From contig CAVEOF010000001.1 in NCBI GenBank assembly GCA_963617165.1, forward strand, positions 3,006 to 67,005: a stretch of DNA of 64,000 nucleotides. Direction: 5' to 3'. Under the pieces are notes generated by a model. That model saw only the letters and a program-made list of their open reading frames with translations, was not told the origin of the DNA and did no database searches. Position numbers and translations under genes: made by a program. This document shows positions 18,853-47,312 of the stretch, in pieces. The stretch is from Coriobacteriaceae bacterium. GTDB taxonomy: Bacteria > Bacillota > Clostridia > Oscillospirales > CAG-272. Within the stretch, counting starts at the first letter, position 1; each line of letters starts with the position of its first letter.

Positions 18853-20076
18853 ATGAAGCTGATCAGAGACCGACACGGGATCTACACGCCCGCTTTTTAT
18901 CTTCTCACGCTGTGCGCCGTGATCCTGCGCACGGTGGCGCTCTTTATCGGATACGACAAGGTGACGGGGTACTACACGACGGCGCTCGGAAAGGTCGCCG
19001 ACACGTTCGCGGCGGTGTCCGCCCTGTTCTTCCTCACCTATGCGTTCGTCTTCCGACGGGACGCGGGGCGTGAGATCTCGCTCTTCTCCCCTGCCGCATA
19101 CGTCCCCGCGGGGATCGCGGCGGTGGCGCTCCCCTTCTTTTCAAAGCAGCTGTTTGCCGCGGCATCGGCGGCGGAGAACATCGCGCGCACGCTTCCCATG
19201 CGGGTGACGGCGATCCTCTGTGCATGTCTTTCGCTCCCCGCCGTGCTCTTCTTTCTGCTCTGCGTGATGGCGCCGCGTGTGCGCTCCCGCGTGCGGGGAG
19301 AGTGTGGGATTCTGACGGCGCTCGCTTTTGCCGCTTACGCCGCTTATCTGTATTTCAGCACGTCCCTGCCCATCAACGCCCCGGGAAAGCTCGCAGAGCA
19401 ATGCGCCTACCTTGCGATCGCGATCTTCTTCCTGTATGAGACGCGCATCGCGCTCGGCAGAGAGTGCCGTCCGCTGTACTCGACGTTCGGCTTTATCGCG
19501 GCGTATCTTGCGGCTTATGTTTCCCTGCCCGCCCTCATCCTCTACTTCTTCGGCGATCTGACGGTGGAAAACAGCTTGCAGGCGACGGTATCGACCTTTG
19601 CTCTCTTCCTCTTTATTCTTTGCCGCGTTCTGCTCGCGGGACGTCGGGACGACGCGACGCACACGCCGCTGACCGACTCTCTCCTCGCACTCGCGGCGGC
19701 GAGAGAAGAAGAGCTCGCCCATGCGGCGCCCCTGCCCTACGACGTTCTCGAGGCGGAGAAGAACGACCCCGACCATCTGCCCGCCGACATTTTCGCCGAC
19801 CTTGTGTCGGAGAGTGAGGAGGACGGCGCGATGCCCGACGGTGCGGAAGAAGCGACGCGGGACAGCGAGTCTCACGAAACGGCAGAGCCTGCGGCGGAAG
19901 AAGTCGACCACCCGACAGAGCACGTGGCGGATGCTACCACGGAAGAAGAAACCGACCGTACGATAGAGCACGTAGCGGATGCCGCCGCGGAGGGCAGCGC
20001 ATCCGACGATGCGGATCCTACGGAGACCGAATCGGAGATCACGACTCAAAAAGTCGGGGAGGAGACGGACGAATGA
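18853..20076 (+). CDS. polytopic membrane protein of unknown function with an acidic C-terminal tail; translationally coupled to polA
   Basis: ORF 18760..20076. ATG 18853 begins MKLIRDRHGIYTPAFYLLTLCAVIL..., with about 7-8 hydrophobic segments. The tail of about 110 aa is D/E-rich with a repeated EHVADA motif. The stop overlaps the polA ATG (ATGA at 20073). The start is uncertain because no SD is visible. Confidence 0.6.
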   Translation: MKLIRDRHGIYTPAFYLLTLCAVILRTVALFIGYDKVTGYYTTALGKVADTFAAVSALFFLTYAFVFRRDAGREISLFSPAAYVPAGIAAVALPFFSKQLFAAASAAENIARTLPMRVTAILCACLSLPAVLFFLLCVMAPRVRSRVRGECGILTALAFAAYAAYLYFSTSLPINAPGKLAEQCAYLAIAIFFLYETRIALGRECRPLYSTFGFIAAYLAAYVSLPALILYFFGDLTVENSLQATVSTFALFLFILCRVLLAGRRDDATHTPLTDSLLALAAAREEELAHAAPLPYDVLEAEKNDPDHLPADIFADLVSESEEDGAMPDGAEEATRDSESHETAEPAAEEVDHPTEHVADATTEEETDRTIEHVADAAAEGSASDDADPTETESEITTQKVGEETDE

Positions 20077-22613
20077 AGAAGATCCTTGTCATTGACGGAA
20101 GCAGTATCATTCACCGCGCATACTACGGGGTGCGTCCGCTCAGCACGAAGAGCGGAAAGCCGACGAACGCCGTTTACGGCATGGTCAACATGATCGCGCG
20201 TCAGCTCGACACCGTGAAGCCCGATTACGCCGCCGTCGCCTTTGACCTAAAGACGCCGACCTTCCGTCACAAGCTCTACGACGCATACAAGGCGGGACGA
20301 CGCCCGACGCCCGACGATCTCGTCGCGCAGTTTGACGATGCAAAAGAGGTCCTCCGCGCGATGGGGCTGACGATCCTCACGCTCGAGGGGTACGAAGCCG
20401 ACGACATACAGGGAACCGTCGCGCACATGGCGCACGCGCATCCCGACACCGAGAGCTTTGTCTTCTCGGGCGACCGCGACCTGCTCCAATTGATCGACGA
20501 TAAGATCATCGTTCTGCTCGCGACGAATACCGACACCCTCCCGATGCACGAAGCCGAATTCCGCGCGAAGTACGGCATCCCCTCCTCCGCCTTTGTCGAC
20601 ATGAAGGCACTCATGGGGGACTCCTCCGACAACATTCCCGGGGTGGCGGGCATCGGTGAGAAGACCGCCGCAAGCCTGATCGCCTCCTTCGGCACGCTCG
20701 AGGGGATCTACGAGCACATCGACGACCCGAGCATCAAAAAGGGTGTCAGAGAAAAACTCCTTGCCGACCGCGACATGGCATTTCTCTCCCGCGCGCTCTC
20801 GCGCATCGACACGGCGGTCCCCCTGCCCGTCACGCTTGAAGAGCTTGCCTATCACGGCATCGACAGAGGGGCGCTGTATCGGAAATTCATAGAGCTTGAG
20901 CTGAATTCTTTCATCGTAAAGTTTGGTTTGCATAAGGAAGATTCCGAAGAAAATTCGGAAGAAAATGTAGAAGAATCGGAAACAATTGTTGATATTTGCG
21001 AGATTCCGACAGATTTATCGGGCAAAAAGCGGATTGCTATTTTAGAGGACGACAAGAATATATTTCTTTCGGACGGTGAAAAAAGCTACCGTTTTACGGG
21101 AGAGCTTGCTTCGCTCGCTCCGCTGCTTTCGGGGAGGCGGGATATACTCACCTTTGAGGGAAAGCGGCTTTGGCACAGGCTCACGGATGCGGGCGTTGCC
21201 ATCGGGCATGACGTGCGTTTTCTCGACCTTTCCTTGTACGCGTACGTACTCAACCCCGGGAGCGGGAGCACGACGCTCTCTTCCCTCTTTTCGATGTTTC
21301 TCGGCGTTACGCCGCGCGGCGCGGCTCCCGCGCATCTCTTTGCTTTGGAGCGTGTCATGCGGGAAAAGGTGATCGCGGACGGGGAGCTTGCCGTCCTCGA
21401 CGACCTTGAGATCCCCCTGCTTCCCATCCTCGCAAGGACGGAGAAGGCGGGCTTCCGCATCGATACGGAGGGGATGCACGCGTTCGGCGAGGCACTCGGA
21501 GAGCTTGCCAACGAGCTGACCGACCGCATCTATATGCAGGCGGGCGAGGTCTTCAATATCAATTCACCGAAGCAGCTCGGTGAAGTCCTCTTCGAAAAGC
21601 TCGGCTTGTCCTGCGGGAAGAAAAAGACGAAAAGCGGGTACTCGACCGACGCGGAGACGCTCGAAGAGCTTCGCGGTTACGCGCCGATCGTCGAGGACAT
21701 TCTGGAATACCGACAGGTGACGAAGCTGCGCAGCACCTATGCCGTAGCGCTCGTGGAGGCGGCGGATGCCGAGCATCGGATCCACACCGACTTCAAGCAA
21801 ACGCTGACGGCGACGGGACGACTCTCCAGCGCCGATCCGAACCTACAGAACATTCCGATCCGCACCAAAATGGGACGCGAAATGCGCCGCTATTTCATCG
21901 CCAAAGAGGGCTATTCCTTGGTAGATGCGGACTACTCGCAGATCGAGCTCCGCCTGCTCGCCCACATTTCGGGGGACGAGAAAATGCAGGACGCCTTCCG
22001 TAACGGTGAGGACATTCACCGCAAGACGGCGGCGGCGGTCTTCGGCGTCCCCGAGGAAGCTGTGACCGACGAGCTCCGCAAGCGGGCAAAGGCGGTCAAT
22101 TTCGGCATCGTGTACGGCATCGGCGGCTTCTCCCTTGCGAAGGACATCGGCACGACGGTGAAGCAGGCGACCGCCTATATTCAGAATTACAAGCACAACT
22201 ATCTGGACATTGACGCCTATCTCGACCGCGCCGTCAAGGAGGCGGAGGAGCACGGATATTCCGTGACGCTCTTCGGAAGACGGCGCTATATTCCCGAGCT
22301 CTCGGCGCAGAATGCCAATCTTCGCGCGTTCGGCAAGCGGGTGGCAATGAACGCCCCTATTCAGGGCACCGCCGCGGACATTATCAAGGCGGCAATGATC
22401 CGCGTTTCGAACCGACTCGACAAGGAAGGACTCGACGCACGGCTCGTCATGCAGGTGCACGACGAATTGATCCTCGAGGTGCGTGACGATCAGGTGAAGC
22501 GCGCGGCAAAGCTCCTGAAAGAAGAAATGGAGCACGCGGTCACGCTTTCCGTCCCGCTGACGGTCGATGTCTCGGCGGGGAAAAACTGGCTTGAACAAAA
22601 GGAATTGGATTGA
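20073..22613 (+). CDS. polA: DNA polymerase I
   Basis: 846 aa with an N-terminal 5'-nuclease (LVIDGSSIIHRAYYG), C-terminal family A motifs (DYSQIELRLLAH, RRAKAVNFGIVYG, QVHDELI) and an acidic linker EDSEENSEENVEESE. Confidence 0.95.
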   Translation: MKKILVIDGSSIIHRAYYGVRPLSTKSGKPTNAVYGMVNMIARQLDTVKPDYAAVAFDLKTPTFRHKLYDAYKAGRRPTPDDLVAQFDDAKEVLRAMGLTILTLEGYEADDIQGTVAHMAHAHPDTESFVFSGDRDLLQLIDDKIIVLLATNTDTLPMHEAEFRAKYGIPSSAFVDMKALMGDSSDNIPGVAGIGEKTAASLIASFGTLEGIYEHIDDPSIKKGVREKLLADRDMAFLSRALSRIDTAVPLPVTLEELAYHGIDRGALYRKFIELELNSFIVKFGLHKEDSEENSEENVEESETIVDICEIPTDLSGKKRIAILEDDKNIFLSDGEKSYRFTGELASLAPLLSGRRDILTFEGKRLWHRLTDAGVAIGHDVRFLDLSLYAYVLNPGSGSTTLSSLFSMFLGVTPRGAAPAHLFALERVMREKVIADGELAVLDDLEIPLLPILARTEKAGFRIDTEGMHAFGEALGELANELTDRIYMQAGEVFNINSPKQLGEVLFEKLGLSCGKKKTKSGYSTDAETLEELRGYAPIVEDILEYRQVTKLRSTYAVALVEAADAEHRIHTDFKQTLTATGRLSSADPNLQNIPIRTKMGREMRRYFIAKEGYSLVDADYSQIELRLLAHISGDEKMQDAFRNGEDIHRKTAAAVFGVPEEAVTDELRKRAKAVNFGIVYGIGGFSLAKDIGTTVKQATAYIQNYKHNYLDIDAYLDRAVKEAEEHGYSVTLFGRRRYIPELSAQNANLRAFGKRVAMNAPIQGTAADIIKAAMIRVSNRLDKEGLDARLVMQVHDELILEVRDDQVKRAAKLLKEEMEHAVTLSVPLTVDVSAGKNWLEQKELD

Positions 22614-30165: not shown

Positions 30166-31305
30166 TCAGGATCTCTTTCCGAAAAGTCCCGCAAAGAAGG
30201 ATCTCGCCTTATTTCTCTTTTTCTTCGCCTTGACACGGCGGCGCCAGTCGGCAAAGCGGACCTTCAGCCCGCGCGCCTCCCGTTTCAGATACTGGGGATA
30301 GGTATACATCGAGACGTTCGCCGCGAAGTCGCAGGCCTCCTTCGAGAAGAAGCCGCTCTCGTCGAGCTCCGTCCAGCCGAAGCCCTCCGCATAGGTATCG
30401 TGAAGCAGCGTCCAGAAGAAGAGCTTCGCATCGATCCAAAGGAGATTATAGACCTTGAAGCAGATGCTGACCGACAGGTTGATAAAGGAGGCGGAAAGGG
30501 GCAGATAGAGCCCGTGGTGAACAAGGAATTCCTTCACCGCCATATAGACGGCGGGCACCTGCTCGTAATTCTTGCGGAACATGCGGGCACGCACCTGCTT
30601 CGGATAGACGCGGTGATGAAGAAGGACACCCTCGCACTTCCCGACGCGCTCGGCGAGCGAGAGGGCGGTTAGGGTGAAATACACGTCCTCGAAGATCTTC
30701 GCGTCCTCGAGGAAGGACAACTCCTTTTCGGTCACGAAATCGCGGCGGAAGAGCTTGTTCCAGACATACCCTTCCGTCGACTGGAAGATGGTATCGGGAA
30801 ATTCGTTCTTCCCCGTGACGCGCCCGTTCGCGAGAATGTCGGCGTGCTCACTCGGAATGCTGCGCTTGAAGCGTGCGGTGCGGTTTTCGAAAAGGTCGTA
30901 CTCACAGACGGCGATATCGAGAGATTTTTCCTTCGCGGTGCGATAGAGCGTCTCGAGCATCGTCGGCTCGAAAAAGTCGTCGGCGTCGAGGAAGGAAAGG
31001 TACTCGCCGCGGGCGCGGCGCATCCCGTTGTTTCTCGCCTTCGCGGGTCCCGCATTGGTCTCGGTGACGATGCGGATGCGCGGATCCTTTTTCTGATACT
31101 CTTTTAGGATCGCGAGGGAGCGGTCGGTCGAGCCGTCGTCGATGCAGATGATCTCGATGTCGCGAAGCGTCTGTGCGATCACGCTGTCGAGGGCGGGACG
31201 CAGATAGTCCGAGGCATTGTAAATGGGCATGACGACAGAGACCGAGAGGGGCTCGGTCTCACGCGGGATATTCTCTTCCAACGGATTTCTATCTTGATCG
31301 CTCAT
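30166..31305 (-). CDS. family 2 glycosyltransferase with an uncharacterised C-terminal half
   Basis: SVSVVMPIYNASDYLRPALDSVIAQT...IICIDDGSTD...FLDADDF are GT2 motifs. I prefer the start at ATG 31303-31305 (AGAAGGA 6 nt upstream), with ATG 31311 as an alternative. Confidence 0.8.
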   Translation of the reverse strand: MSDQDRNPLEENIPRETEPLSVSVVMPIYNASDYLRPALDSVIAQTLRDIEIICIDDGSTDRSLAILKEYQKKDPRIRIVTETNAGPAKARNNGMRRARGEYLSFLDADDFFEPTMLETLYRTAKEKSLDIAVCEYDLFENRTARFKRSIPSEHADILANGRVTGKNEFPDTIFQSTEGYVWNKLFRRDFVTEKELSFLEDAKIFEDVYFTLTALSLAERVGKCEGVLLHHRVYPKQVRARMFRKNYEQVPAVYMAVKEFLVHHGLYLPLSASFINLSVSICFKVYNLLWIDAKLFFWTLLHDTYAEGFGWTELDESGFFSKEACDFAANVSMYTYPQYLKREARGLKVRFADWRRRVKAKKKRNKARSFFAGLFGKRS

Positions 31306-31378
31306 CGTCATTCCTTCTTCCGCCGATACGAAGGTGGCGGAAAATGCAAAGTCGGGTTTCTCTTTTTTCTTTTTCTCT

Positions 31379-31407
31379 ATTCTAACACAAACAGAAAAAA
31401 ATGTCAA
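31379..31407 (-). promoter_or_regulatory. candidate sigma-A promoter of the GT2 gene (TTGACA-17-TAGAAT, TGn extended -10)
   Basis: Reverse complement of 31371-31410 reads cagTTGACAtttttttctgtttgTGtTAGAATagag. Confidence 0.6.
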
Positions 31408-31595
31408 CTGTTTCTTTCATTCTCTTTTTTCTCCGCCCGAGCGATCGACACGGAGCCTCTTTTCCTCGCGGAAGGCCGTTCGGGCTCTCCGATCTTTCCG
31501 CGCCCGAAAAACGACAGGGGCACCCCTCCCGCAAGGGTAACGTCAAAGGCGTGTCAAATCGTAGGTTCCGTTTATTTTGAAAAGAAACGTTTACA

Positions 31596-35306: not shown

Positions 35307-38300
35307 TTATTCGTCGTCGTAGGAATCTTCTTCGTTTTCGTTATCGGCAAAGTCCTCGTCGAAGTCGTAATCGTCCTCGTCCTCGCCTTCGCCTTCCGCA
35401 TCGTCCTCGAAATCCTCGTCCTCGTCGGCGACGTCGTCGAAGTCCGCGGGTGCGTCCTCCGTCTTTTCGTCGGCGCGACGCTCGACCTCATCGAGGCTTG
35501 CGAACGCGGGTGCGTCGTCCTCGCCGATCTCGGAAACGGCGATCTCCTCACCGTTCTTATCGAGTACGGTAATGTCGAGGCAGAGTGCCTGAAGCTCCTT
35601 GACGAGCACCTTGAAGGACTCGGGAATTCCGGGCTTCGGAATGTTCTGACCCTTGACGATCGCCTCGTAGGTTCTCGTACGTCCGGTAACGTCGTCCGAC
35701 TTCACCGTCAGGATCTCCTGAAGGGTGTAGGCGGCGCCGTATGCCTCGAGTGCCCAGACCTCCATCTCGCCGAAGCGCTGACCTCCGAACTGGGCTTTAC
35801 CGCCGAGAGGCTGCTGTGTGACGAGGGAGTACGGACCGATCGAACGGGCGTGGATCTTATCGTCGACAAGGTGGTGCAGCTTGAGGTAATACATGATACC
35901 CACGGTGACGGGGTTGTCGAAGGCATCTCCCGTTCTGCCGTCGTAAAGGGTGACCTTGCCGTCGATGACCTTCAAGGTCTCGGTCTTCATGAGGTTGTGA
36001 AGCTTCTCGTCGTCGTCGACGATCGTCTGATCGACACGCTGAAGATCGGGAGTGCCGTCCTCGCGAAGGACCTCCATAAAGACTGCCTTACCGCGCACGC
36101 TCTCGTCGGGACGGATGTCACGCGTATACTTCGCACGGCGGAGAAGCTCGAGGATGTCGGTCTCCTTCGCACCGTCGAAGACGGGCGTCATGATCTTGAT
36201 GCCGAGCTTCTTGCACGCGATGCCGAGGTGGACCTCAAGCACCTGACCGATGTTCATACGGGAAGGAACGCCCAGCGGGTTCAGAACGATATCGAGGGGG
36301 GTGCCGTCCGCAAGGAAGGGCATATCCTCGGGTGGAAGGATTCTCGAAACAACGCCCTTGTTACCGTGGCGGCCCGCCATCTTATCGCCGACGGAGATCT
36401 TTCTCTTCTGCGCGATATAGACGTGCACCACTTTATTGACACCGGGAGCGAGGTCGTCCGAGTTGCTTCTGTCGTAGATCTTGACGTCGACGACGATACC
36501 GTACTCACCGTGACGCATACGGAGGGAGGAATCCTTGACCTCACGCGCCTTCTCACCGAAGATGGCGCGAAGCAGTCTCTCCTCGGGGGTGAGCTCCGTC
36601 TCGCCCTTCGGCGTGACCTTACCGACAAGGATGTCGCCCGCACGAACCTCGGTACCGATGCGGATGATACCGTCGGAATCCAGATCCTTTAGGGCGTCCT
36701 CGCCGACGTTCGGCACCTCGCGGGTGATCTCCTGCGAGCCGAGCTTGGTATCTCTCGCCTCGATCGTATACTCTTCGATGTGGATCGAGGTGTACATGTC
36801 CTCGCGCACGAGACGTTCGTTCAGAAGAACGGCGTCCTCGTAGTTGTAGCCCTCCCACGTCATAAAGCCGATCAAAGCGTTTTTGCCGAGAGAGACCTCG
36901 CCGTTCGAGGTCGCGGGACCGTCGGCAATGACCTGACCCGCCTCGACACGCGCGCCCTCGTTCACGATGGGACGCTGGTTCACGCAGGTGCCTTGGTTCG
37001 AACGCTTGAATTTAATGAGATGATAGGTATCTTTTCTTCCCGAATCGGTGAGGATCACGATCTCGGAGCCTGCGGCACGCTCAACGATACCGCCCTCCTT
37101 CGCGACCACGACGGCACCCGAATCGACCGCCGCCTTGTATTCCATACCCGTCGCGACGATCGCGGAGTCGGTCATCATCAGCGGCACTGCCTGCTTCTGC
37201 ATGTTCGAGCCCATCAGCGCACGGGTGTTGTCGTCGTTTTCAAGGAAGGGAATGCAACCCGCGGCGACCGAGACCGCCATCTGCGGGCAGGCATCCATGA
37301 GGTCGACGCTCGTCGGCTCCACCTCGATGAACTCCGCCTTGCATCTCGCGATAACCTTCTTATTGATAAAGTAGCCGTTCTCGTCGATATGCTCGTTCGC
37401 CTGTGCGACGATGTTGTTGTCCTCTTCGTCCGCGGTGAGATAGACGACCTCGTCGGTCACTCTTCCCGTCTTCTTGTCGACGATGCGGAAGGGTGCCTTC
37501 AAAAAGCCGTAATCGCTGATCTTCGCATAGGAGGCGAGATAGGAGATCAGACCGATGTTCGGTCCTTCGGGGGTCTCGACGGGGCAGATACGTCCGTAGT
37601 GCGTATAGTGCACGTCACGCACCTCGAAGGAGGCGCGGTCACGGGACAGACCGCCGGGGCCGAGGGCGGAGAGACGGCGCTTATGCGTCAGCTCCGCAAG
37701 GGGGTTGTTCTGATCCATGAACTGGGAGAGGGGCGAAGAACCGAAGAACTCGCGGATCGCCGTGGCGACGGGGCGGGTGTTGATGAGGTTCTCGGGGCGC
37801 ATGTCGTCGGTATCGTGGACGGACATTCTCTCCTTAATATTCTTATCCATGCGCGCCATACCGATGCGGAACTGGTTCTGGAGCAGCTCACCGACGCAGC
37901 GGAGACGACGGTTGCCGAGATGGTCGATGTCGTCGGTCGTGCCGATGCCGTGGGAGAGTCCGATCAGGTAGTTGACGGAGGCAAAGATGTCTTCCTTCGT
38001 GATATGTTTCGGCTGAAGGAGAGCGATCTGCTCCTTCGCACACTTCTTGATGAAATAGGTACGGGCATCGCCGGTCTGTCCTTCTTCATCCGCCTTCGCG
38101 ATGATGTCGCGCAGAACGGAAAGGCGGACCTTCTCACCCGGCTTTACACCGGCATCCTCGAGGTCGAAGCCGAGAAGCAGCTCGGGACGACCCGTGCCGT
38201 TGCCGAACACCTTCACGGTGTTGCCGAGCTCGTCCTTCACAAAGATCTCTTCGGCAAGGCTGTCGTCGATCTTCGCGGCAAGCTCCTGCGTGACGACGGC

Positions 38301-39257
38301 GCCCTCCTCCGCGACGATCTCACCCGTGACGGGGTTCACGACGGGGGTGGCAAGGGCAAAGCCGACGACGCGGGCGCCGATGGCGAGCTTCTTATTGTAT
38401 TTATAGCGTCCGACGGCGGCGAGGTCATACCGCTTCGGATCGAAGAAGAGGTTATTGACCAGCATTTCCGCACTCTCGACGAGCGGGGGCTCGCCGGGAC
38501 GGAGCTTCTTGTAGATCTCCTTCAGCGCTTCGTCGCGGAAGGAGGTATCGTTCTCCATCGCGAGGGTGGCGCACTCATCCTTCGCGAAGGTGGTGACGAG
38601 CATATCCTCTTCCCCGAACATGCGGAGGATCGCCTCGTCCGAATCCTCGCCGACGGGGCAGAGGGCGCGGATCAGGACGGTGACGGGGATCTTTCTCGTC
38701 TTATCGATCTTGACGAAGAAGACGCCCGAGGTGTCCGTCTCGTATTCGAGCCACGCGCCGCGGTAAGGAATGACGGTAGCCGTATAGATGTGCTTACCCT
38801 GCTTGTCAACCTCGGTGCCGTAGTAGACGCCGGGAGAACGAACGAGCTGCGAAACGATGACGCGCTCCGCGCCGTTGATGACGAACGTACCGTTCTCGGT
38901 CATGAGGGGGAAGTCGCCCATGTAGATCTGCGCGGTCTTGAGCTCGCCCGTCGAACGGTTGATGAGTCTGACGCCCACCTTCATGTGGGAGTCATAAGTC
39001 ACCGAACGATCCTTGCACTCCTCGACGGAGTAACGAGGATTCGGGTCGAGGGTATAGTCGGTGAACTCGATGGCGAGGTTGCCCGTGTAGTCCACGATGG
39101 GGGACACGTCGTGCAAGACCTCCTCGAGTCCTTCCTTCAAGAACCACTCGTAGGACTTCTTCTGCACCTCGATCAGATTTGGCATTTCCGTCGCTACTTC
39201 AATCTTGGAAAAGCTCATTCTCACATTCGTGCCAAGCTGCCTGGGTTTAAGCATCAT
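35307..39257 (-). CDS. rpoB: DNA-directed RNA polymerase subunit beta, with an acidic C-terminal tail of about 65 aa
   Basis: About 1316 aa with ...[14 protein letters not shown]... and [25 protein letters not shown] prefer the start at ATG 39255-39257 (GGAG about 10 nt upstream). The track ORF starts at GTG 39269. Confidence 0.95.
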
Positions 39258-39435
39258 AGATAGAATCACTCCATTCTAAAATTTACAAACTACCATAGAT
39301 CGCCGCACTGCCCGTGCGCGGGCACTGCCGTCAAATATCGGTCGGTTCTGTGCGGAATCTGACGTTTTTCGGGGAGAAGACCCTAAAAAAGGGCAAAATA
39401 TCCCCATAGTATAAGCGATTATAATGCATTATAGT

Positions 39436-39463
39436 ATTATATCACAATTTTTCTATTTGTCAA
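39436..39463 (-). promoter_or_regulatory. candidate sigma-A promoter of rpoBC (TTGACA-16-TATAAT with TGn)
   Basis: Reverse complement of 39421-39465 reads tcTTGACAaatagaaaaattgTGaTATAATactataatg. The leader to rpoB is about 170 nt. Confidence 0.65.
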
Positions 39464-39590
39464 GAGGATTTGTAAATTTTTTCCGAAAAAATGAAAAATT
39501 TCTTTCCCCGCCGCGCATCCGAGAGAAAGAAACGGGCTGTTTTTCCGAAGGATCGCCGCCTTTCGGGCAGAGATCGGAGCGATCTCCGAC

Positions 39591-39642
39591 AAAAAAGAAG
39601 CGGGAGCGTCTTCGCCATCACCGGCGAATTCTGCTTCCGCTT
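39591..39642 (-). terminator. intrinsic terminator after the double-RadC gene
   Basis: mRNA strand reads AAGCGGAAGC...GCTCCCGCTT followed by CTTTTTTGTC. Confidence 0.6.
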
Positions 39643-39675
39643 TTCTCGTTTTTTATGATTTTTGCAAAGAATCAT

Positions 39676-41064
39676 TTACAAATTTGCGTTATTTTCATTG
39701 ATCTCGGTCGAGGCGGCGAAGCGATACTCGCTCTTCCCTGTCGTCAGTGCCTCCTCGCCGACGCGTCCGAATCTGTCGCCCGCGACGACGTAGTGCTCGC
39801 GCAGGCGAATGCCGACGGAGGCGAAGGCGCTCTGCATCACGGTCGTCAGAGCGATATCCTCGGGCGAGGGCTTCGGGTACCCGTTCGGATGGTTGTGCGC
39901 GAGGAGGACCGAGGCGGCGTTCCGCCTGACGGCAAGGTCGACAAGGCGCCGCGGCGTGATGCTCGACGAATTGACCGAGCCGCGCGAGACACACTCTGCC
40001 GAAAGGACACGTCCCGCACCGTCAAAGAGAAGAAGGTACACGTTCTCCTCGGAGAGGGGTGCGAAGAGTGCCGAAAGGTAGTCGGTGATCTGCCGCTCGG
40101 TGACGACGCTCCCCATCGGGAAGCGGTCGGTATGGCGGCGCGAGGTGAGTGCGGCGACGAGCTTTAAGGCGACGGCGTCCTTTTCGGACATCCCGTAGGT
40201 CGCCGTCAGCTCTTCGACGGGAAGGGTGAGGAGGGCGCGAAGGCTCCCGCCGTCGCAAAGCATCCGAGAGGCACACCCCGCGGCGTCGGCAACGTCGGGA
40301 AGAACGGACAAAAGGCGCGTGAGCGTCTCCTCGTCCCGCGTCCCTCCCGGTGTGGGCGCGGACTCGCCGATCAGGAGCTCCCGCCCGCTGCCCGCGGCAT
40401 CCTTCGAGGAAAAAGCGATGCACTTATCACCCGAGAGAATATAGTGCTCGAGCAAAGGGATCGAGGAGACGGCGAGCGCCTCACCGACGAGATGCCCGCG
40501 TACGTAATCGTTTTCGGAAGGATAGAGCGGTCCGTACGGATGGGTATGCGCCAGGATCACGGCGGATGCGTGCCGCTCGATGGCGAGAGAGGCAAAGTGT
40601 CGGACGTCCGCGTACCCTCTGCCGAAATCCTCGTCGGCGATCACGTCGGTCGCGATCCTGCAAAGGCGGTTGTCGAGGGAGATCATCACGGTGCGGTAAG
40701 TATGGGCGTTCCCGAGCAGGGAGCGAAGATAGTCCTCCGCACGACGGTAGGTAAGCTCCTCCCGCCCCGCTTCCTCGGCGGGAAAGAAGATCTCCTCCCC
40801 CGCGGCGAAGATCTCGGAGAGAAAATGCGCCGCCCGCTCCCCGATGCCGGGCGCGGTGGCAAGCGCCGTCTCCTCTGCGCCCGCGATCCCGTCAAGGGTG
40901 CCGAAGCGCGCGAGAAGCTCGTGCGCGATCGGGTTGGTATCACGATAGGGAATGACGGTGTACAAAAGCATTTCAAGAAGCTCATGCGTATCGAAAATGT
41001 CGGCGCCGTGTAAAGCAAACTTTGCTTTCATGCGTTTTCTGTGACCGATATGCACGCTTGTCAT
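39676..41064 (-). CDS. fused tandem RadC-like protein (two HhH + JAB/MPN modules)
   Basis: 462 aa. Module 1 has GHRKRMKAKF...HELLEMLLY...ELLARFGTL... plus HTHPYGPLYPSEND. Module 2 has ...LLAHNHPNGYPKPSPED. Both keep HxHx7Sx2D. The SD GGGGAGGGGG lies 8 nt upstream of the ATG. Confidence 0.75.
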   Translation of the reverse strand: MTSVHIGHRKRMKAKFALHGADIFDTHELLEMLLYTVIPYRDTNPIAHELLARFGTLDGIAGAEETALATAPGIGERAAHFLSEIFAAGEEIFFPAEEAGREELTYRRAEDYLRSLLGNAHTYRTVMISLDNRLCRIATDVIADEDFGRGYADVRHFASLAIERHASAVILAHTHPYGPLYPSENDYVRGHLVGEALAVSSIPLLEHYILSGDKCIAFSSKDAAGSGRELLIGESAPTPGGTRDEETLTRLLSVLPDVADAAGCASRMLCDGGSLRALLTLPVEELTATYGMSEKDAVALKLVAALTSRRHTDRFPMGSVVTERQITDYLSALFAPLSEENVYLLLFDGAGRVLSAECVSRGSVNSSSITPRRLVDLAVRRNAASVLLAHNHPNGYPKPSPEDIALTTVMQSAFASVGIRLREHYVVAGDRFGRVGEEALTTGKSEYRFAASTEINENNANL

Positions 41065-41106
41065 GCAAAGACCCCCTCCCCTCTTTTCTTCGTTTTCGGT
41101 TTGTTT

Positions 41107-41856
41107 TTACGATTTTTGCTCCGCGTCTGCGGTGTCTTTTTCCGACGTGTCTTCTTCGGAGGCGTCGGATGCTTTCCTTTCTTCTTCATAGTGGGGGACG
41201 TAGCCCTCGGGCTTTTTCACCTCGAGCATACAGATGGGCACCCCCTTTTCGGTAAAGGCGCGCTCATATTCGGTCATGACGTTGCCCTCCGCATACGCCG
41301 ACGCGTGAAGGTCACGGGTGACGACGGCAGGCGTGAGCCCGAGCGCCGCGATCTCCCCGAGAGAAAACTCGAAGAGAGGAACGTTGTCGGTCTTGAAGCG
41401 CAGGATCCCCCCGTCGCGAAGCAGGGTGAAATACATCGCGAGATAGCGCCGATAGGTCAGACGGCGCTTGCGATACCCCTTTTTGTGCCACGGGTCGGAA
41501 AAATTCAGATACATGCGGGAGACGGCACCGGGTGCAAACCACAGCGGGAGGCTGTCCGCCCCGTCGATCAGAAAGCGGAGATTGTCGGGGCGCTCCGCCG
41601 CCCTTGCCTTCGCCTGCTCGGCGGCGAGGACAACGCAGTCGGAGATGCGCTCCATCGCGAAAAACAGCGCGTCGGGGTTCCGTCTCGCCGTCTCGCAGGC
41701 GAAGCCGCCCTTCCCCGCGCCGACCTCGAGAAAGATCTCTCCCTCTCTCCCGAAGACCTCACGCGCGGAAGCGATCGGCTGTTCGGGGCGCGAAAGCAGA
41801 AGCTCCGCGCACGCCTCGAGACGGGCGGCGCCGTTCTTTTTTCTTCTCATTCTCAT
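41107..41856 (-). CDS. trmB: tRNA (guanine-N7)-methyltransferase with an acidic C-terminal tail
   Basis: ...FLEVGAGKGGFACETARRNPD...YLNFSDPWHKKGYRKRRL... are TrmB motifs. ATG 41854-41856 overlaps the prfC stop (ATGA). Confidence 0.85.
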   Translation of the reverse strand: MRMRRKKNGAARLEACAELLLSRPEQPIASAREVFGREGEIFLEVGAGKGGFACETARRNPDALFFAMERISDCVVLAAEQAKARAAERPDNLRFLIDGADSLPLWFAPGAVSRMYLNFSDPWHKKGYRKRRLTYRRYLAMYFTLLRDGGILRFKTDNVPLFEFSLGEIAALGLTPAVVTRDLHASAYAEGNVMTEYERAFTEKGVPICMLEVKKPEGYVPHYEEERKASDASEEDTSEKDTADAEQKS

Positions 41857-43466
41857 CGGCGGTACCTCTCGGCTTCCCCGCGGGCGAATTCGGTCAGCTC
41901 GAGCCCCGGGTTGTCCTCCAGCACCCAGCGGATCGTCCACTCGGTCGGGAAGATCAGAAGGTTGTTGCCGCGGAAGTCCTGCACCCACTTGGTGTCGTGG
42001 GAAAGCTTCAGCGTCTTGGGGTCGAGATCGGGATTCGCGATATAGCGGATCTCCCGATAGGGGAGGTCGGAGCGACGGAGGTCACAGCCGTACTCGTTTT
42101 TGAGTCGGTATTCGAGCACCTCGAATTGCAGGACGCCGACCACGCCGACAATGACGCGCTCGAGTCCCGCGTTCGGCTCGGTGAAGATCTGAATGGCGCC
42201 CTCCTGGGCGATCTGCATCATGCCCTTGGCAAACTGCTTACGCTTCATGGAATCGACCTGCTCGACCATGGCGAAGTGCTCGGGCGCGAAGACGGGGATG
42301 CCCTCAAAGCAGAATTTCTTCCCCTTCTCGCACACGGTGTCACCGATGGAAAACACACCGGGGTCGAACACGCCGATGATGTCGCCGGCGTACGCCTCGT
42401 CGATGACCTCGCGCTCCGCCGCCATCATCTGCTGGGGCTGAGACAGGCGGAAGCTCTTGTTCCCCTGTACGTGATAATATTCCTTCGACCGATCGAATCT
42501 GCCCGAGCAGATGCGCATAAAAGCGATGCGGTCGCGGTGCGCCTTGTTCATGTTCGCCTGGATCTTGAAGACGAAGGCGGAGAAGGCGTCGTCGAAGGGA
42601 TCGATCACGACGTCCCCCGCACGGCGGGCGAGGGGCGCGGTCGTCATTTTCAGAAAGTGCTCGAGGAAGGGCTCTACGCCGAAGTTGTTGAGCGCGGAGC
42701 CGAAGAAGACGGGCGAGAGCTTCCCGTGCCGCACCTTCTCGATGTCGAAGTCGAAGGAGGCGCCGTCGAGGAGCTCGACCTGCTCGCAAAGCTCGGTGCG
42801 GCTCTTCTCCCCGATCAGAGAATCGAGCGTCGCCGTATCGGAAATGTCACAGTCGACGCCGTGGATCTTCTCGCGTCCTCTGTGCGAGTCCGAGAAGAAG
42901 AGGATGGAGCGCGCCTCGCGGTCGTAAACGCCCTTGAAGCCCTGTCCGCAACCAATGGGCCAGTTCATCGGATAGGTGCCGATGCCGAATTCGTGCTCGA
43001 GCTCGTCGAGGAGGTCGAAGGGGTCGCGCGCTTCTCTGTCCATTTTATTGATAAAAGTAAAGATCGGAATATCCCGCATGGCGCAGACCTTGAAAAGCTT
43101 ACGCGTCTGCGGCTCGATGCCCTTCGCGGCGTCGATGACCATGACGGCGCTGTCCGCCGCCATCAGCGTGCGATAGGTATCCTCCGAAAAGTCCTGGTGT
43201 CCCGGGGTGTCGAGGATGTTGATGCAATAGCCCTCGTATCCGAATTGCAGCACCGAGGAGGTGATGGAGATCCCTCTCTGCTTTTCGAGGTCCATCCAGT
43301 CGGAGACGGCGTGCTTGTCCGACTGCTTCCCCTTGACCGAGCCCGCGGTCTGGATGGCGCCGCCGTAAAGAAGAAACTTCTCCGTCAGTGTGGTCTTACC
43401 CGCGTCGGGGTGTGAAATGATGGCGAAGGTACGCCGTCTTTCGATCTCTGTTCTCAAATCCTGCAT
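41853..43466 (-). CDS. prfC: peptide chain release factor 3
   Basis: RRTFAIISHPDAGKTTLTEKFLLYGGAIQTAGSVKG... with the start at ATG 43464-43466. The longer track ORF is rejected. Confidence 0.9.
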   Translation of the reverse strand: MQDLRTEIERRRTFAIISHPDAGKTTLTEKFLLYGGAIQTAGSVKGKQSDKHAVSDWMDLEKQRGISITSSVLQFGYEGYCINILDTPGHQDFSEDTYRTLMAADSAVMVIDAAKGIEPQTRKLFKVCAMRDIPIFTFINKMDREARDPFDLLDELEHEFGIGTYPMNWPIGCGQGFKGVYDREARSILFFSDSHRGREKIHGVDCDISDTATLDSLIGEKSRTELCEQVELLDGASFDFDIEKVRHGKLSPVFFGSALNNFGVEPFLEHFLKMTTAPLARRAGDVVIDPFDDAFSAFVFKIQANMNKAHRDRIAFMRICSGRFDRSKEYYHVQGNKSFRLSQPQQMMAAEREVIDEAYAGDIIGVFDPGVFSIGDTVCEKGKKFCFEGIPVFAPEHFAMVEQVDSMKRKQFAKGMMQIAQEGAIQIFTEPNAGLERVIVGVVGVLQFEVLEYRLKNEYGCDLRRSDLPYREIRYIANPDLDPKTLKLSHDTKWVQDFRGNNLLIFPTEWTIRWVLEDNPGLELTEFARGEAERYRR

Positions 43467-43515
43467 GGCTTTTCCCCTGTATTCTCCGATCCGTAAATTC
43501 TCGCATATGAGAGTC

Positions 43516-43544
43516 AGTATAGCATATTTTTTAGATTTTTTCAA
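43516..43544 (-). promoter_or_regulatory. candidate promoter of prfC-trmB-radC2 (TTGAAA-17-TATACT)
   Basis: Reverse complement reads cggTTGAAAaaatctaaaaaatatgcTATACTgac. Confidence 0.55.
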
Positions 43545-43682
43545 CCGTTTTTTCACATTTTTCCGAGATTTTTCCCATAAAAACGAAAGATCTTCCCCCT
43601 GCGGGGGCGGAATGCGCGCCCGCTTGTGCGAATTGCACAAAGTTTTGCCCGTTTTTTCTACATGCCGCGCGGGAGACAATTC

Positions 43683-43712
43683 TTGACTTTTCGGGGGGCG
43701 GGGTGGTATAAT
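43683..43712 (+). promoter_or_regulatory. candidate promoter of the surface-protein operon (TTGACT-18-TATAAT with TGn)
   Basis: tcTTGACTtttcggggggcggggTGgTATAATataac, followed by an AT-rich leader of about 60 nt. Confidence 0.55.
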
Positions 43713-43772
43713 ATAACTACCGATTTATATGTATAAATATAAATAAGTAAATTATAATTTTCAGGAGGCTTT

Positions 43773-46700
43773 ATGACTAAGAGAAAATTCAGAGTGCAGT
43801 GGGTGGCAATTCTTTGCCTTGTCGCACTGCTCGTCGGTGCGCTCTCCGTGTTCCTGTTCCGGAATCCGGTGACCGCCGCCGATCTCTCGGGAAAAGGGAT
43901 CCGTGAGGATTTCTCGGGATTTACCGAGGGGTATCTTTACCGAAGGACAGCCGAGGATTACGCTTCTACGTCCGAGCTGGGTCTCTGGAAGGATTTTCCG
44001 TCACCCGACAATAAAAACCAGTTGTGGAAAGCAGTGCTCTATAACGGTAATAACGACGCCGCTAAGGGGAAAAAAGTTCCGAAGTCCTTCAGCGTAGAGA
44101 CCGTAGAGGGCAATGTCGGCGGGAAGGCATTGAAGATGGTTACCTCTTATCTGTCACCCGGCATCGAATCGAGAGCCGAAAACTCGTGTCGCTTCGAAAT
44201 GACCGTTAATTCGAAGATCACCGAGGGGATGACGGTTCATCTTCATTACCGCTTCATGGTGCCGAACGAAACGTCTTACATTGATTTGTATGAAAAAATG
44301 GGGAACGGTTTTCCGGGTGCACATGTTTCCATCCGAGGCACCACGATGACAATAGCCAAGACGACGACGCGAACGCTGGTTCCGGGGCACTGGTACGATG
44401 TCGTATTCAGTGCGGAATACGGAGCGAAGCAAGCGACCGTACAAATCGACGGCGAGAGCTTTACGATGACCAACTCTCAGATTGCCTACACTACCGTCGA
44501 ATATCCGATTTTCCAAGTATATCCCTCTCAGCTGAAGGATTGCGACAGCATCCTTTATCTCGATGATCTTTCGCTTTTCGAGAAGGCGGGAAGCTACTCG
44601 ATCCTGAACGACCGTATGGAGGTCGCCTCCTCCGACTATCCGCTCACCGAAAGCGCTCTGACCGTCATTCGCGGGACGACAGTGAGCGAGATCCGAGAGA
44701 GCATCTCGATGGCTTACGACGTTACGATGAAGATCAAGGACGGCGAAAACGAACTCTCCGACGGCGCGCAGGTCGCGAGCGGAAACAAGCTCGTCTTCAC
44801 AACGGCGGACGGCGGTTATACCGTGTCGGTACCGATCACCGCAATTGAAGATCATCCCGCGGATAAGGACGCGTCCGACACCTTCAATAACAGCTCCTTC
44901 CGCATCGGAAAGGATTCCGCGGTAGACGGCAGCATTTACAAGGGCTCCGCGACGAACCTTCTCGACGGCGTTTCCGCATCGAGCGTCCTCGGCGACGGGG
45001 ATTCCCTTTCCGTCGCGCGCGCCCCCTTCAAGCGGTCGGGCGACAACGGACTGATCTTCCGCTCCGACAAGACCGGCGCGAGCGCGAACATGACGGCGCT
45101 TCGTTCCGCATCTCTTCCCTACACGGCGGGCTACGGTCACATTCTCGAGTTTGACGTGATCGCGACGGGCGAGGGCGGTGTGCTCACCGTCGCCCGTACC
45201 GCGACCTCCGACACGATAGCGATCGCCCCCGACGGCATCACTTTCGGCGGCAAGACGGCGACGATCTCGATCAACCGTTACTACCGCATCACGTGGGAGA
45301 TCACTGCGGGCGGTGTGCAGAACGTGTACGTTGACGGCGTGCTCCTCGCCTCGAAGAGCGGCTCGGCAAGCGCGAGCGGGAGCGGAATCTCCTTCACTAT
45401 GACGAAGGACACGGCAGTGAATGCGGAATTTGCCGTCGACAACCTTTATTCTTACATTCAAGCATCCGAAGCCGCGCCGACGGCAGACACCTCCTATCCG
45501 CGCTCCGACGTGATAAGTGTGACGGAAGCATCCCGCACCTTCTACATACAGGGTGCCAATTTCGACGTGAAGTATCTCATCGGAACCTTTGAGCAGGACG
45601 ATGTCGCCCTTTACGATAAGGACGGAAACGAGCTGACGAAGGGCAACTTCGACCGCGAGACGGGCTATCTCGTCTATTATCCGAAGAACAACGGAACGGT
45701 GAAAATCTACACGCTCGGCAATCCCTCCTTCTCCTTCTCTTCGATCTATGCCGACGGCATGGTGCTTCAGAGAAACAAGACCATCACTCTCTGCGGCTTC
45801 GCGGATGCGTCGGGCATCGAGGCAACGGCGACCCTGACCGACAAGGACGGCGTGCTCCTTGCCATCAATCAGACAGAGACCGTGGCGGGTCAGTTCGAGA
45901 TCACGCTTCCCCCGATGGCGGCGGCGAAAGGACTTTCGCTCAACATCCGCATCGCGAGCGGCAGGGAAGTCTTCTACGACAAGACCTTTACCGACGTTGC
46001 GATCGGTGAGGTGTGGATCCTCTCGGGTCAGTCGAACATGGCGTTCGAGGCAAAGGACATGGAGGATGCCGCACAGTATCTCGCAAACGCCGACAACTAC
46101 GGCGACAACATCCGCTACTACACGCAGTCGAGGATCGGTTCCTTCACGCCCGCGACCGACACGCAGGGCGGCGGCTGGTACGTGGCTTCGGCAGAGAACC
46201 TCAAGACACACGCGATCTCGGGTATCGGCTACGTGATGGCGACCCGCCTTGCCGAGCAGTTCGGCGACGACGTCCCCGTCGCGATCGTCAATGCCTACTA
46301 CGCGGGCTCCTCCATTGTCGCATGGTTCGACCTCGACACCATTCAGACAAAGTACGAGAGCCTCTATCAGTCCTACCTCACCGCAAAGGCGGCGGGAACG
46401 CCCTCGAGCTGGAACACGATCCCCTCCGTATGCTACAATCAGCTTGTCCATCCGATCAAGGGCTATACGGCAAGCGGTCTCCTCTGGTATCAGGGTGAGT
46501 CCGACTGCGGACGTCCCGACCTCTACGGTGACTACTACAAGACGCTGACCTCTCTTTGGAGAGAATGGCTGCACAACGACGAGCTCCCGTTCGTGGTGAT
46601 GCAGCTCGCGCCCTACGAGAGCACAAGCTATCCCGCATTCCGTAACCTTCAATATAATATGGTACAGAGCGACCCGTACTCCTACCTCATCTCCACGATG

Positions 46701-47312
46701 GACGACGGTCCCGTCTTCAACGCGGCGGATAACCGCAACGGCTACGGTTACTCGCACGTTCATCCCGCGAAGAAGTCGGGCATCGGTCTCCGCACCGCGG
46801 ACATGATCCTCGGCGCGATCTACGGCATCGATCTCGGCAGAGCGTACAAGGCACCCGAGGTAGTTTCCGTCAAACGGGACGGTGAGAAAGTGATCCTCAC
46901 CTTCGATACCGAGCTGACTCTCCTTTACGGCGACATTGTCACGGGTTTCACGCTTGACGGCGTGGCGGCAGTCGGCACGATCGACGGCAAGACGCTGACC
47001 CTTACGGCGGCGGGCGTCACCGAGCCGAAGACGGTCGCCTACGCGCAGGACACCCTTACGGTCGTGATGAAGGACGGCACGGTGTATCACAATGTGACGA
47101 ACGTCCATGTCGGAAACGACGCGGACTCGAGCAAGACGTATAACGACCGCTCCTACACCACCTTCGACGCGATCGATACAACCGGTGAAAAAGTGAACGT
47201 AAAAGTCCGCGCCGGCTCTTATGATGTGATCCGCTCCACCTACGGCGGCAATCTGACCAACGAATCGGGCTATGCCCTTCCCGCGTTCTCTCTCACCGTG
47301 AGCGCCGAATGA
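43773..47312 (+). CDS. membrane-anchored extracellular multidomain carbohydrate esterase (two LamG/ConA-like modules + SASA-type sialate O-acetylesterase-like domain)
   Basis: 1179 aa with an N-terminal signal-anchor VAILCLVALLVGALSVFLF. The C-terminal half has GEVWILSGQSNMAFEA and LLWYQGESD (SGNH/SASA-like). AGGAGG lies 5 nt upstream. Confidence 0.7.
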   Translation: MTKRKFRVQWVAILCLVALLVGALSVFLFRNPVTAADLSGKGIREDFSGFTEGYLYRRTAEDYASTSELGLWKDFPSPDNKNQLWKAVLYNGNNDAAKGKKVPKSFSVETVEGNVGGKALKMVTSYLSPGIESRAENSCRFEMTVNSKITEGMTVHLHYRFMVPNETSYIDLYEKMGNGFPGAHVSIRGTTMTIAKTTTRTLVPGHWYDVVFSAEYGAKQATVQIDGESFTMTNSQIAYTTVEYPIFQVYPSQLKDCDSILYLDDLSLFEKAGSYSILNDRMEVASSDYPLTESALTVIRGTTVSEIRESISMAYDVTMKIKDGENELSDGAQVASGNKLVFTTADGGYTVSVPITAIEDHPADKDASDTFNNSSFRIGKDSAVDGSIYKGSATNLLDGVSASSVLGDGDSLSVARAPFKRSGDNGLIFRSDKTGASANMTALRSASLPYTAGYGHILEFDVIATGEGGVLTVARTATSDTIAIAPDGITFGGKTATISINRYYRITWEITAGGVQNVYVDGVLLASKSGSASASGSGISFTMTKDTAVNAEFAVDNLYSYIQASEAAPTADTSYPRSDVISVTEASRTFYIQGANFDVKYLIGTFEQDDVALYDKDGNELTKGNFDRETGYLVYYPKNNGTVKIYTLGNPSFSFSSIYADGMVLQRNKTITLCGFADASGIEATATLTDKDGVLLAINQTETVAGQFEITLPPMAAAKGLSLNIRIASGREVFYDKTFTDVAIGEVWILSGQSNMAFEAKDMEDAAQYLANADNYGDNIRYYTQSRIGSFTPATDTQGGGWYVASAENLKTHAISGIGYVMATRLAEQFGDDVPVAIVNAYYAGSSIVAWFDLDTIQTKYESLYQSYLTAKAAGTPSSWNTIPSVCYNQLVHPIKGYTASGLLWYQGESDCGRPDLYGDYYKTLTSLWREWLHNDELPFVVMQLAPYESTSYPAFRNLQYNMVQSDPYSYLISTMDDGPVFNAADNRNGYGYSHVHPAKKSGIGLRTADMILGAIYGIDLGRAYKAPEVVSVKRDGEKVILTFDTELTLLYGDIVTGFTLDGVAAVGTIDGKTLTLTAAGVTEPKTVAYAQDTLTVVMKDGTVYHNVTNVHVGNDADSSKTYNDRSYTTFDAIDTTGEKVNVKVRAGSYDVIRSTYGGNLTNESGYALPAFSLTVSAE

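Follow-up and report, generated by a model that had tools for sequence, protein, structure and literature searches.

Canonical proteins of the RadC/UPF0758 family (e.g., YicR of Escherichia coli and YsxA of Bacillus subtilis; Pfam PF20582 and PF04002, NCBIfam NF000642, structure 2QLC) consist of a single module of about 212–230 amino acids, in which a helical, helix-hairpin-helix (HhH) region precedes a JAB domain. The present analysis concerns a gene in a stretch of 64 kb from contig CAVEOF010000001.1 of a bacterium placed in CAG-272 (Oscillospirales); this stretch is referred to as the window, and all positions are counted from its first letter. The gene (39676..41064, minus strand) starts with ATG, encodes 462 amino acids plus stop and contains two modules of the RadC layout in tandem. 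Since relatives carry the two modules either in one protein or in two adjacent genes, the term RadC pair is used for both forms. The fused protein is interpreted, at a probability of about 0.55, as a covalent pseudo-heterodimer of RadC paralogues in which one head binds nucleic acid and one Zn site is catalytic.

A functional precedent is found in eukaryotes, where a catalytic JAB/MPN protein (MPN+) forms a heterodimer with a degenerate paralogue (MPN−) that arose by duplication (Rpn11-Rpn8, CSN5-CSN6 and BRCC36-Abraxas/KIAA0157). The RadC pair likewise combines one complete JAB paralogue (C module, 78/78 sequences) with an incomplete one (N module), and most likely works like MPN+/MPN− pairs without belonging to those families. 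It differs from them in that only the Glu is lost from the incomplete partner, which usually retains the Zn ligands (in about 80–90 % of relatives), that the halves are often covalently fused and that their pairing is proposed from sequence. Moreover, the JAB domains belong to the RadC clade and are accompanied by HhH heads, pointing to nucleic acid and not ubiquitin as the likely context. Genes for ubiquitin-like proteins, E1 or E2 enzymes are absent among the annotated neighbours, which were not searched systematically for them.

Among RadC proteins, fusions to DinG helicase, ArdC and primase have been described (Iyer et al. 2011, PMC3239186; 2025 DinG review, PMC11981726), and inactive RadC versions that have lost their ligands occur in some fusobacterial fusions (PMC3239186). 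As in the fusions to DinG, ArdC and primase, a RadC JAB domain is here a module of a larger nucleic-acid-related protein; however, the partner is another complete RadC instead of a helicase, primase or ArdC domain, none of which is present. The fused RadC pair adds a new architecture to a known family and does not amount to a system of a new kind.

Two RadC modules in one polypeptide

The 462-aa protein is matched by Pfam RadC (PF04002) in two stretches. Scored apart (residues 1–237 and 238–462; gathering cutoff 22.1 bits), the halves yield 59.8 bits for residues 108–220 and 103.8 bits for residues 323–431. Against the 212-position NCBIfam RadC model, residues 15–221 of the N module align to positions 3–209 (97 bits), and residues 7–195 of the C half (about 244–432 of the full protein) align to positions 14–203 (127 bits). 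Since each half aligns with this model nearly end to end, the protein comprises two complete RadC modules rather than a single RadC extended by a further JAB domain. An initial reading of the window from its letters alone (the sequence-only reading) had proposed two full modules in a single polypeptide, with which both domain searches agree. In contrast to canonical RadC, neither module singly reaches the equivalog cutoff of NF000642 (180 bits), and the 220 bits of the whole protein are only the sum of the two stretches.

The N and C halves share 31 % identity over 116 amino acids across the JAB domain (BLASTP, E 1e-13). Profiles of the N-JAB (residues 104–220; 40405..40755, minus strand as for all parts of this gene) and the C-JAB (residues 320–436; 39757..40107) align without gaps at an offset of +217 and a probability of 99.9 % (hhalign), and the order of strands and helices predicted by AlphaFold2 (AF2) is alike in both domains. 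The motif HTHPYGPLYPSEND starts at residue 173 and the motif HNHPNGYPKPSPED at residue 390. A fold search of the Protein Data Bank (PDB) with Foldseek provided 2QLC, the isolated JAB domain of Chlorobium RadC, as the only solved relative, the remaining matches being weak ones to JAMM/MPN folds, including the eukaryotic complexes named above, and to deaminase folds. The C-JAB superposes on 2QLC with a template modelling (TM) score of 0.84 and a root-mean-square deviation of 2.2 Å, and is related to it also by sequence (E 3e-13).

Both modules are connected by a variable linker (residues 221–243; 40336..40404) with a mean identity of 0.19; its length is highly variable in an alignment of 36 sequences. 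The AF2 model calculated from this alignment has a mean predicted local distance difference test score (pLDDT) of 85.2 and a predicted TM score (pTM) of 0.78 over 462 amino acids; parts of low confidence are residues 221–226 of the linker (pLDDT <50), a loop at 365–367 and the C-terminus from residue ~440 onwards. A pTM of 0.78 is too high for freely tethered halves and implies, at the level of the model, a defined arrangement of the two modules.

Unequal conservation of the two modules

The C-JAB carries the full E...HNHP...S..D signature of canonical RadC. Its predicted catalytic Glu (E340, codon 40045..40047) aligns with the Glu of 2QLC and is invariant in 36/36 fused homologues as well as in 78/78 fused and split sequences taken together. 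A Glu of this kind also belongs to the JAMM motif. In the case of RadC-like domains it is part of the proposed E/H/H/D centre (PMC11981726). Residues H390, N391, H392, P393, S400 and D403 of the motif HNHPNGYPKPSPED (H390...D403; 39856..39897) are likewise invariant in the 36 fused homologues, and the pattern E-H-H-S-D is present in all 78 alignable C modules from fused and split loci. The preceding helical region (residues 244–316; 40117..40335) aligns to NCBIfam RadC positions 14 to about 90 and is homologous to the N-terminal region of RadC. It shows a mean identity of 0.31, and its hairpin is degenerate, with YGM where G-h-G is expected; the hairpin is gone in nearly all family members, and the C half has no Pfam HhH match.

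The opposite holds for the N module. Its head (residues 1–95; 40780..41064) is the best-conserved part of the protein (mean pairwise identity 0.55) and matches Pfam UPF0758_N (29.3 bits, cutoff 27.1) and HHH_5 (28.4 bits, cutoff 27) within the first ~90 residues. It contains an invariant ELLEMLLY...DTNP segment and a G73-x-G75 hairpin that is retained in 78/81 sequences. The HhH-like region that the sequence-only reading had assigned to each module is thus confirmed for N; in C it is recognizable only by way of the full-length RadC model, the Pfam match and the G-x-G both being absent.

The N-JAB retains metal ligands and lacks the catalytic Glu. The position equivalent to E340 is occupied by the non-acidic Y123 (codon 40696..40698), a register on which BLASTP and the ungapped hhalign alignment agree and with which the strand positions of the AF2 model are consistent. 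Glu does not occur in this column in any of 81 sequences (0/81), and in the adjacent column in only 8/81. The motif HTHPYGPLYPSEND (H173...D186; 40507..40548) reads HTH...S..D. Within the 36-sequence alignment, H173 is conserved in 33, H175 in 34 and D186 in 34 sequences, and residue 183 is Thr in 18 and Ser in 13, i.e., Thr in about half of the N modules. The combination H-H-[S/T]-D is present in 65/81 N modules, and at least one of His/His/Asp is gone in about 15/81. Across regions, mean identity is 55 % for the N head, 39–40 % for the two JAB domains, 31 % for the C helical region and 19 % for the linker. Judged by these conservation patterns, this is a case of complementary degeneration, with a predicted binding head kept in N and a predicted complete catalytic site kept in C.

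The main competing explanation, and the view of the sequence-only reading, envisages a covalent dimer whose RadC sites are both active, each independently of the other; fusion would then double the catalytic valency. It draws on the HxH...S..D motifs, both of which are intact in the protein of the window, and on the conservation of H173, H175 and D186 at ~90 % or more across the family. However, the Glu that is invariant in C is missing from every N module, the Ser of the N module is replaced by Thr in about half of the family, a ligand is lost in about 15/81, and the same locus also houses variants that lack the N-JAB altogether (see below). The intact JAMM motif claimed for each module accordingly stands for C but not for N, whose upstream Glu is missing, and two apparently active sites are an unlikely description of a protein family with 78/78 intact sites in C and a Glu in 0/81 N modules.

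Fused, split and compact forms

A scan of one genome per species revealed at least 290 genomes with a relative; locus counts in the following refer to the best 80 of these species-representative genomes, all of which are metagenome-assembled genomes (MAGs) of uncultured Clostridia, Eubacteriales or Oscillospiraceae from human, ruminant, horse and chicken guts. One intact fused open reading frame (ORF) is present in 42/80 loci, and two ORFs are present in the other 38. The split ORFs lie in different frames or are separated by a stop, with an N gene for ~240–260 and a C gene for ~200–220 amino acids, and the gene boundary coincides with the linker region of the fused form. In the typical split locus, 4 or 8 nt are shared between the end of the N gene and the beginning of the C gene, an arrangement that marks translational coupling rather than random frameshift errors.

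The split loci group into clades, and fused and split states interleave on neighbour-joining (NJ) trees of the nearby prfC gene and of the RadC pair itself. Fitch parsimony requires 7–12 changes on bootstraps of the prfC tree and 9–16 on those of the RadC-pair tree, as compared to about 20 for shuffled labels. Since these counts are below those for shuffled labels, the state appears to be inherited yet repeatedly switched, suggesting several fusion or fission events. Recurrent fusion and fission of adjacent paralogues represents Rosetta-stone evidence that the products act together, and the two products of the split genes almost certainly act as one complex.

Further forms of the gene agree with the proposed division between an N head and a C site. 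Three clusters of compact proteins (P0141, P0162 and P0164; 275–291 aa) have the N head (profile positions 3–90) joined straight to the C module (about 261–447), without the N-JAB. The gene for P0141 is located directly downstream of a trmB gene with 60 % identity to that of the window, and therefore occupies the same locus as the RadC pair. In P0112 both JAB domains are present, and most of the C helical region is missing. P0155 (514 aa) represents an independent, more recent tandem duplication of RadC with halves 57 % identical, of which the first half alone has lost the Glu (DRRV vs DEHV) as well as Pro and Ser of the motif; this is a single example. As a separate observation, P0032 (766 aa, on a single ENA contig of 2.8 kb) combines the fused pair with a C-terminal domain of the metallo-beta-lactamase fold (PF00753, PF23023), a fold often used by nucleases; it occurs once and is possibly chimeric.

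Two paralogues with separate, unrelated jobs, the fusions of which are neutral read-through products, would also account for adjacent genes with overlapping stop and start, which a single indel can fuse, and for a linker that is poorly conserved and modelled at low confidence. This explanation is quite unlikely, since the two modules have degenerated in a complementary fashion (N keeps the head, C the active site), the compact variants unite the N head with the C-JAB and the pTM of the whole chain is 0.78. In addition, fused forms occur in many deep clades down to ~30 % identity, also in another genomic context.

Authenticity and distribution of the fused gene

An artefact of assembly or sequencing that joined two adjacent radC genes was named in the sequence-only reading as the finding that would undo it. 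Such an error is conceivable in so far as related species carry two genes at this place, and as one ENA contig of 4548 bp from the 90 % cluster holds the gene as pieces of 180 and 275 aa (P0199/P0203), owing to a frameshift error or to a disruption that arose recently in one population. It is effectively refuted by independent assemblies: NCBI and Logan assemblies contain the exact 462-aa protein, and additional full-length copies of 462 aa in the 90 % cluster come from separate ENA and Logan assemblies. For a relative with 91 % identity, three independent assemblies show the same uninterrupted gene for 460 aa, and 42 species representatives possess an intact fused ORF.

Beyond this species group, a word-indexed search retrieved 36 full-length clusters of 427–499 aa (at least 92 % query coverage) down to ~32 % identity, and an exhaustive profile search detected more than 100 clusters (at the 50 % identity level) of 420–540 aa with a single end-to-end match. 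Sources that name these proteins use “hypothetical protein”, and a duplicated or tandem RadC architecture is not described in the searchable literature. Queries on 2QLC and on recent RadC biochemistry likewise gave no relevant result besides the two cited reviews. The architecture had been called unusual on first reading; this is supported by the lack of a published description, but it is not a one-off, since the pair is conserved in at least 290 genomes and fused in about half of the best 80. A second RadC copy is not present within the window.

Proposed division of labour

Under the preferred reading of a pseudo-heterodimer, RadC would have been duplicated, after which each copy lost complementary parts. 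The N module would supply the UPF0758_N/HhH head for binding of nucleic acid, and its Glu-less JAB domain, with ligands mostly retained, may act as a structural or substrate-positioning partner. The sole complete Zn-hydrolase centre (Glu340, His390, His392, Ser400 and Asp403) would be contributed by the C module. The predicted activity is metal-dependent hydrolysis, probably of a phosphodiester or a peptide/isopeptide bond in a nucleic-acid-associated substrate. Both modules are proposed to pack physically against each other; in sister species, two translationally coupled genes encode these halves.

Several points weigh against this interpretation. The contact between N and C modules is suggested by a single measure, the pTM of the model. 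The metal ligands of the N-JAB are ~90 % conserved as compared to 39 % for the domain as a whole; ligand conservation so far above background argues against a dead domain of the MPN− type, and the N-JAB could retain an activity independent of the Glu. The counts of fusions and fissions are derived from simple NJ trees, and a few of the “split” calls are possibly frameshift errors in MAGs (locus L075 and the P0199/P0203 contig).

Genomic context

The RadC-pair gene is the last of a unit with prfC and trmB on the minus strand. The product of prfC (41853..43466; release factor 3, 537 aa) matches NCBIfam PRK00741 with 721 bits, and that of trmB (41107..41856; tRNA m7G46 methyltransferase) matches TIGR00091 with 123 bits (cutoff 112.65). 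The prfC stop and trmB start overlap as ATGA (41856-41853), and trmB is separated by 42 nt from the RadC-pair gene, the ATG of which is preceded by a GGAGG Shine-Dalgarno sequence ending 9 nt upstream. The mechanical ORF of prfC begins with TTG at 43679; homology begins with ATG at 43466 (PRK00741 alignment from ORF residue 72), and residues 1–537 from there are 99 % identical to the copy at locus L001. A promoter-like site (TTGAAA-17-TATACT with extended TG; 43544-43516, minus strand) lies about 50 nt upstream of this ATG. A site scan found no promoter-like or terminator-like site on the minus strand within the prfC-trmB-RadC unit.

Downstream, a hairpin with U-run (39590..39649, minus strand) starts 27 nt past the stop of the RadC-pair gene. 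According to RNA folding it has −27.4 kcal/mol and a z-score of −2.95 and is followed by CUUCUUUUUUG, so it probably acts as a terminator. The simple terminator scan gave no minus-strand terminator; compound hairpin and U-run are outside its geometry rules. The next site (39436..39463, minus strand; TTGACA-16-TATAAT with extended TG) agrees with the consensus at 12/12 positions and is the putative promoter of rpoB. No Rfam family is present in 39000-44000.

In about 75/80 loci, prfC, trmB and the RadC pair follow each other in this order, with rpoB usually 0.4–6 kb downstream. The position claimed in the sequence-only reading, i.e., last gene of a prfC-trmB unit with ATGA overlap and 42-nt gap just upstream of the rpoB promoter, is confirmed, and the gene order is conserved well beyond the window. 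Since prfC is 80–99 % identical across the 80 loci, the conserved synteny may mostly reflect shared ancestry. From layout and synteny, co-transcription of prfC, trmB and the RadC pair can reasonably be assumed, and a functional link to translation is possible.

The usual neighbourhood of radC is mreBCD, which is a habit of the family and not a strict criterion. In contrast, the RadC pair resides between prfC-trmB and rpoB, and, as had been noted from the sequence, it is not accompanied by mreBCD: an MreB query sequence matched neither within the 64-kb window nor at the 80 loci, flanks of ±6 kb included. A distant clade of fused proteins (P0011/P0012; loci L004-L006 and L081-L083; ~38 % identity) is not located beside prfC-trmB. 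In loci L081-L083 a DUF3737 gene precedes the fused gene, and genes for an M20 peptidase and an ABC transporter follow it; polC lies ~5 kb upstream.

Conjugative elements and phages commonly carry RadC-like JAB domains (PMC5512222, PMC3239186), and weak JAB matches were obtained with PADLOC, which could suggest a mobile-element or anti-phage JAB protein of the prophage, integrative and conjugative element or defence type. This origin is very improbable here: location between prfC-trmB and rpoB-rpoC in about 75/80 species points to vertical inheritance, the GC content (0.62–0.66) is like that of the neighbours, and integrase or other mobile-element genes are absent nearby. The best PADLOC match (PDLC00892, 20.4 bits, E 7e-5) is partial, and no stretch passes alone.

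Other features of the surroundings are as follows. The 3' end of rpoB (35307-35500, minus strand) encodes an acidic C-terminus of low complexity (~60 aa), and the true start of this gene is likely ATG 39257 rather than GTG 39269, judging from the 1316-aa product of a close relative. Divergent from prfC, the gene at 43773-47312 (plus strand) encodes a protein of 1179 aa with a hydrophobic segment at its N-terminus and a SASA (sialate O-acetylesterase-like) domain; at the equivalent place, the 91 % identical relative encodes two proteins, one with SASA (854 aa) and one with LRR_5 (709 aa). The window also harbours genes for DNA polymerase I (PolA; 19818-22613, plus strand) and for a family-2 glycosyltransferase (30166-31416, minus strand), the latter being flanked by rpoC and rpsL also in the close relative.

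Significance of the RadC pair

The original assignment of RadC to DNA repair has been withdrawn, and nuclease as well as peptidase activities have been proposed (PMC3239186, PMC11981726). RadC is among the most widespread bacterial proteins whose biochemical function stayed open for decades. The RadC pair is conserved and widespread in one uncultured gut lineage and has been left unannotated. As a tentative and rather doubtful generalization, RadC might be dimeric throughout the family, with one HhH head and one Zn site sufficing per dimer. This Clostridial lineage would then have frozen the asymmetry into an obligate, repeatedly fused heterodimer, as in the eukaryotic MPN+/MPN− pairs, and the locus would hint at a substrate in RNA, translation or transcription, not in DNA repair.

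A lineage with separate binding and catalytic halves, occurring in fused, split and trimmed forms, provides ready-made separation-of-function constructs. These bear on the residues and domains needed for activity, on the dimerization of RadC and on the ligand of the HhH head. If the interpretation as a pseudo-heterodimer is true, the RadC pair would be a bacterial counterpart of the pairings of an active with an inactive MPN protein in the proteasome lid, the COP9 signalosome and BRISC.

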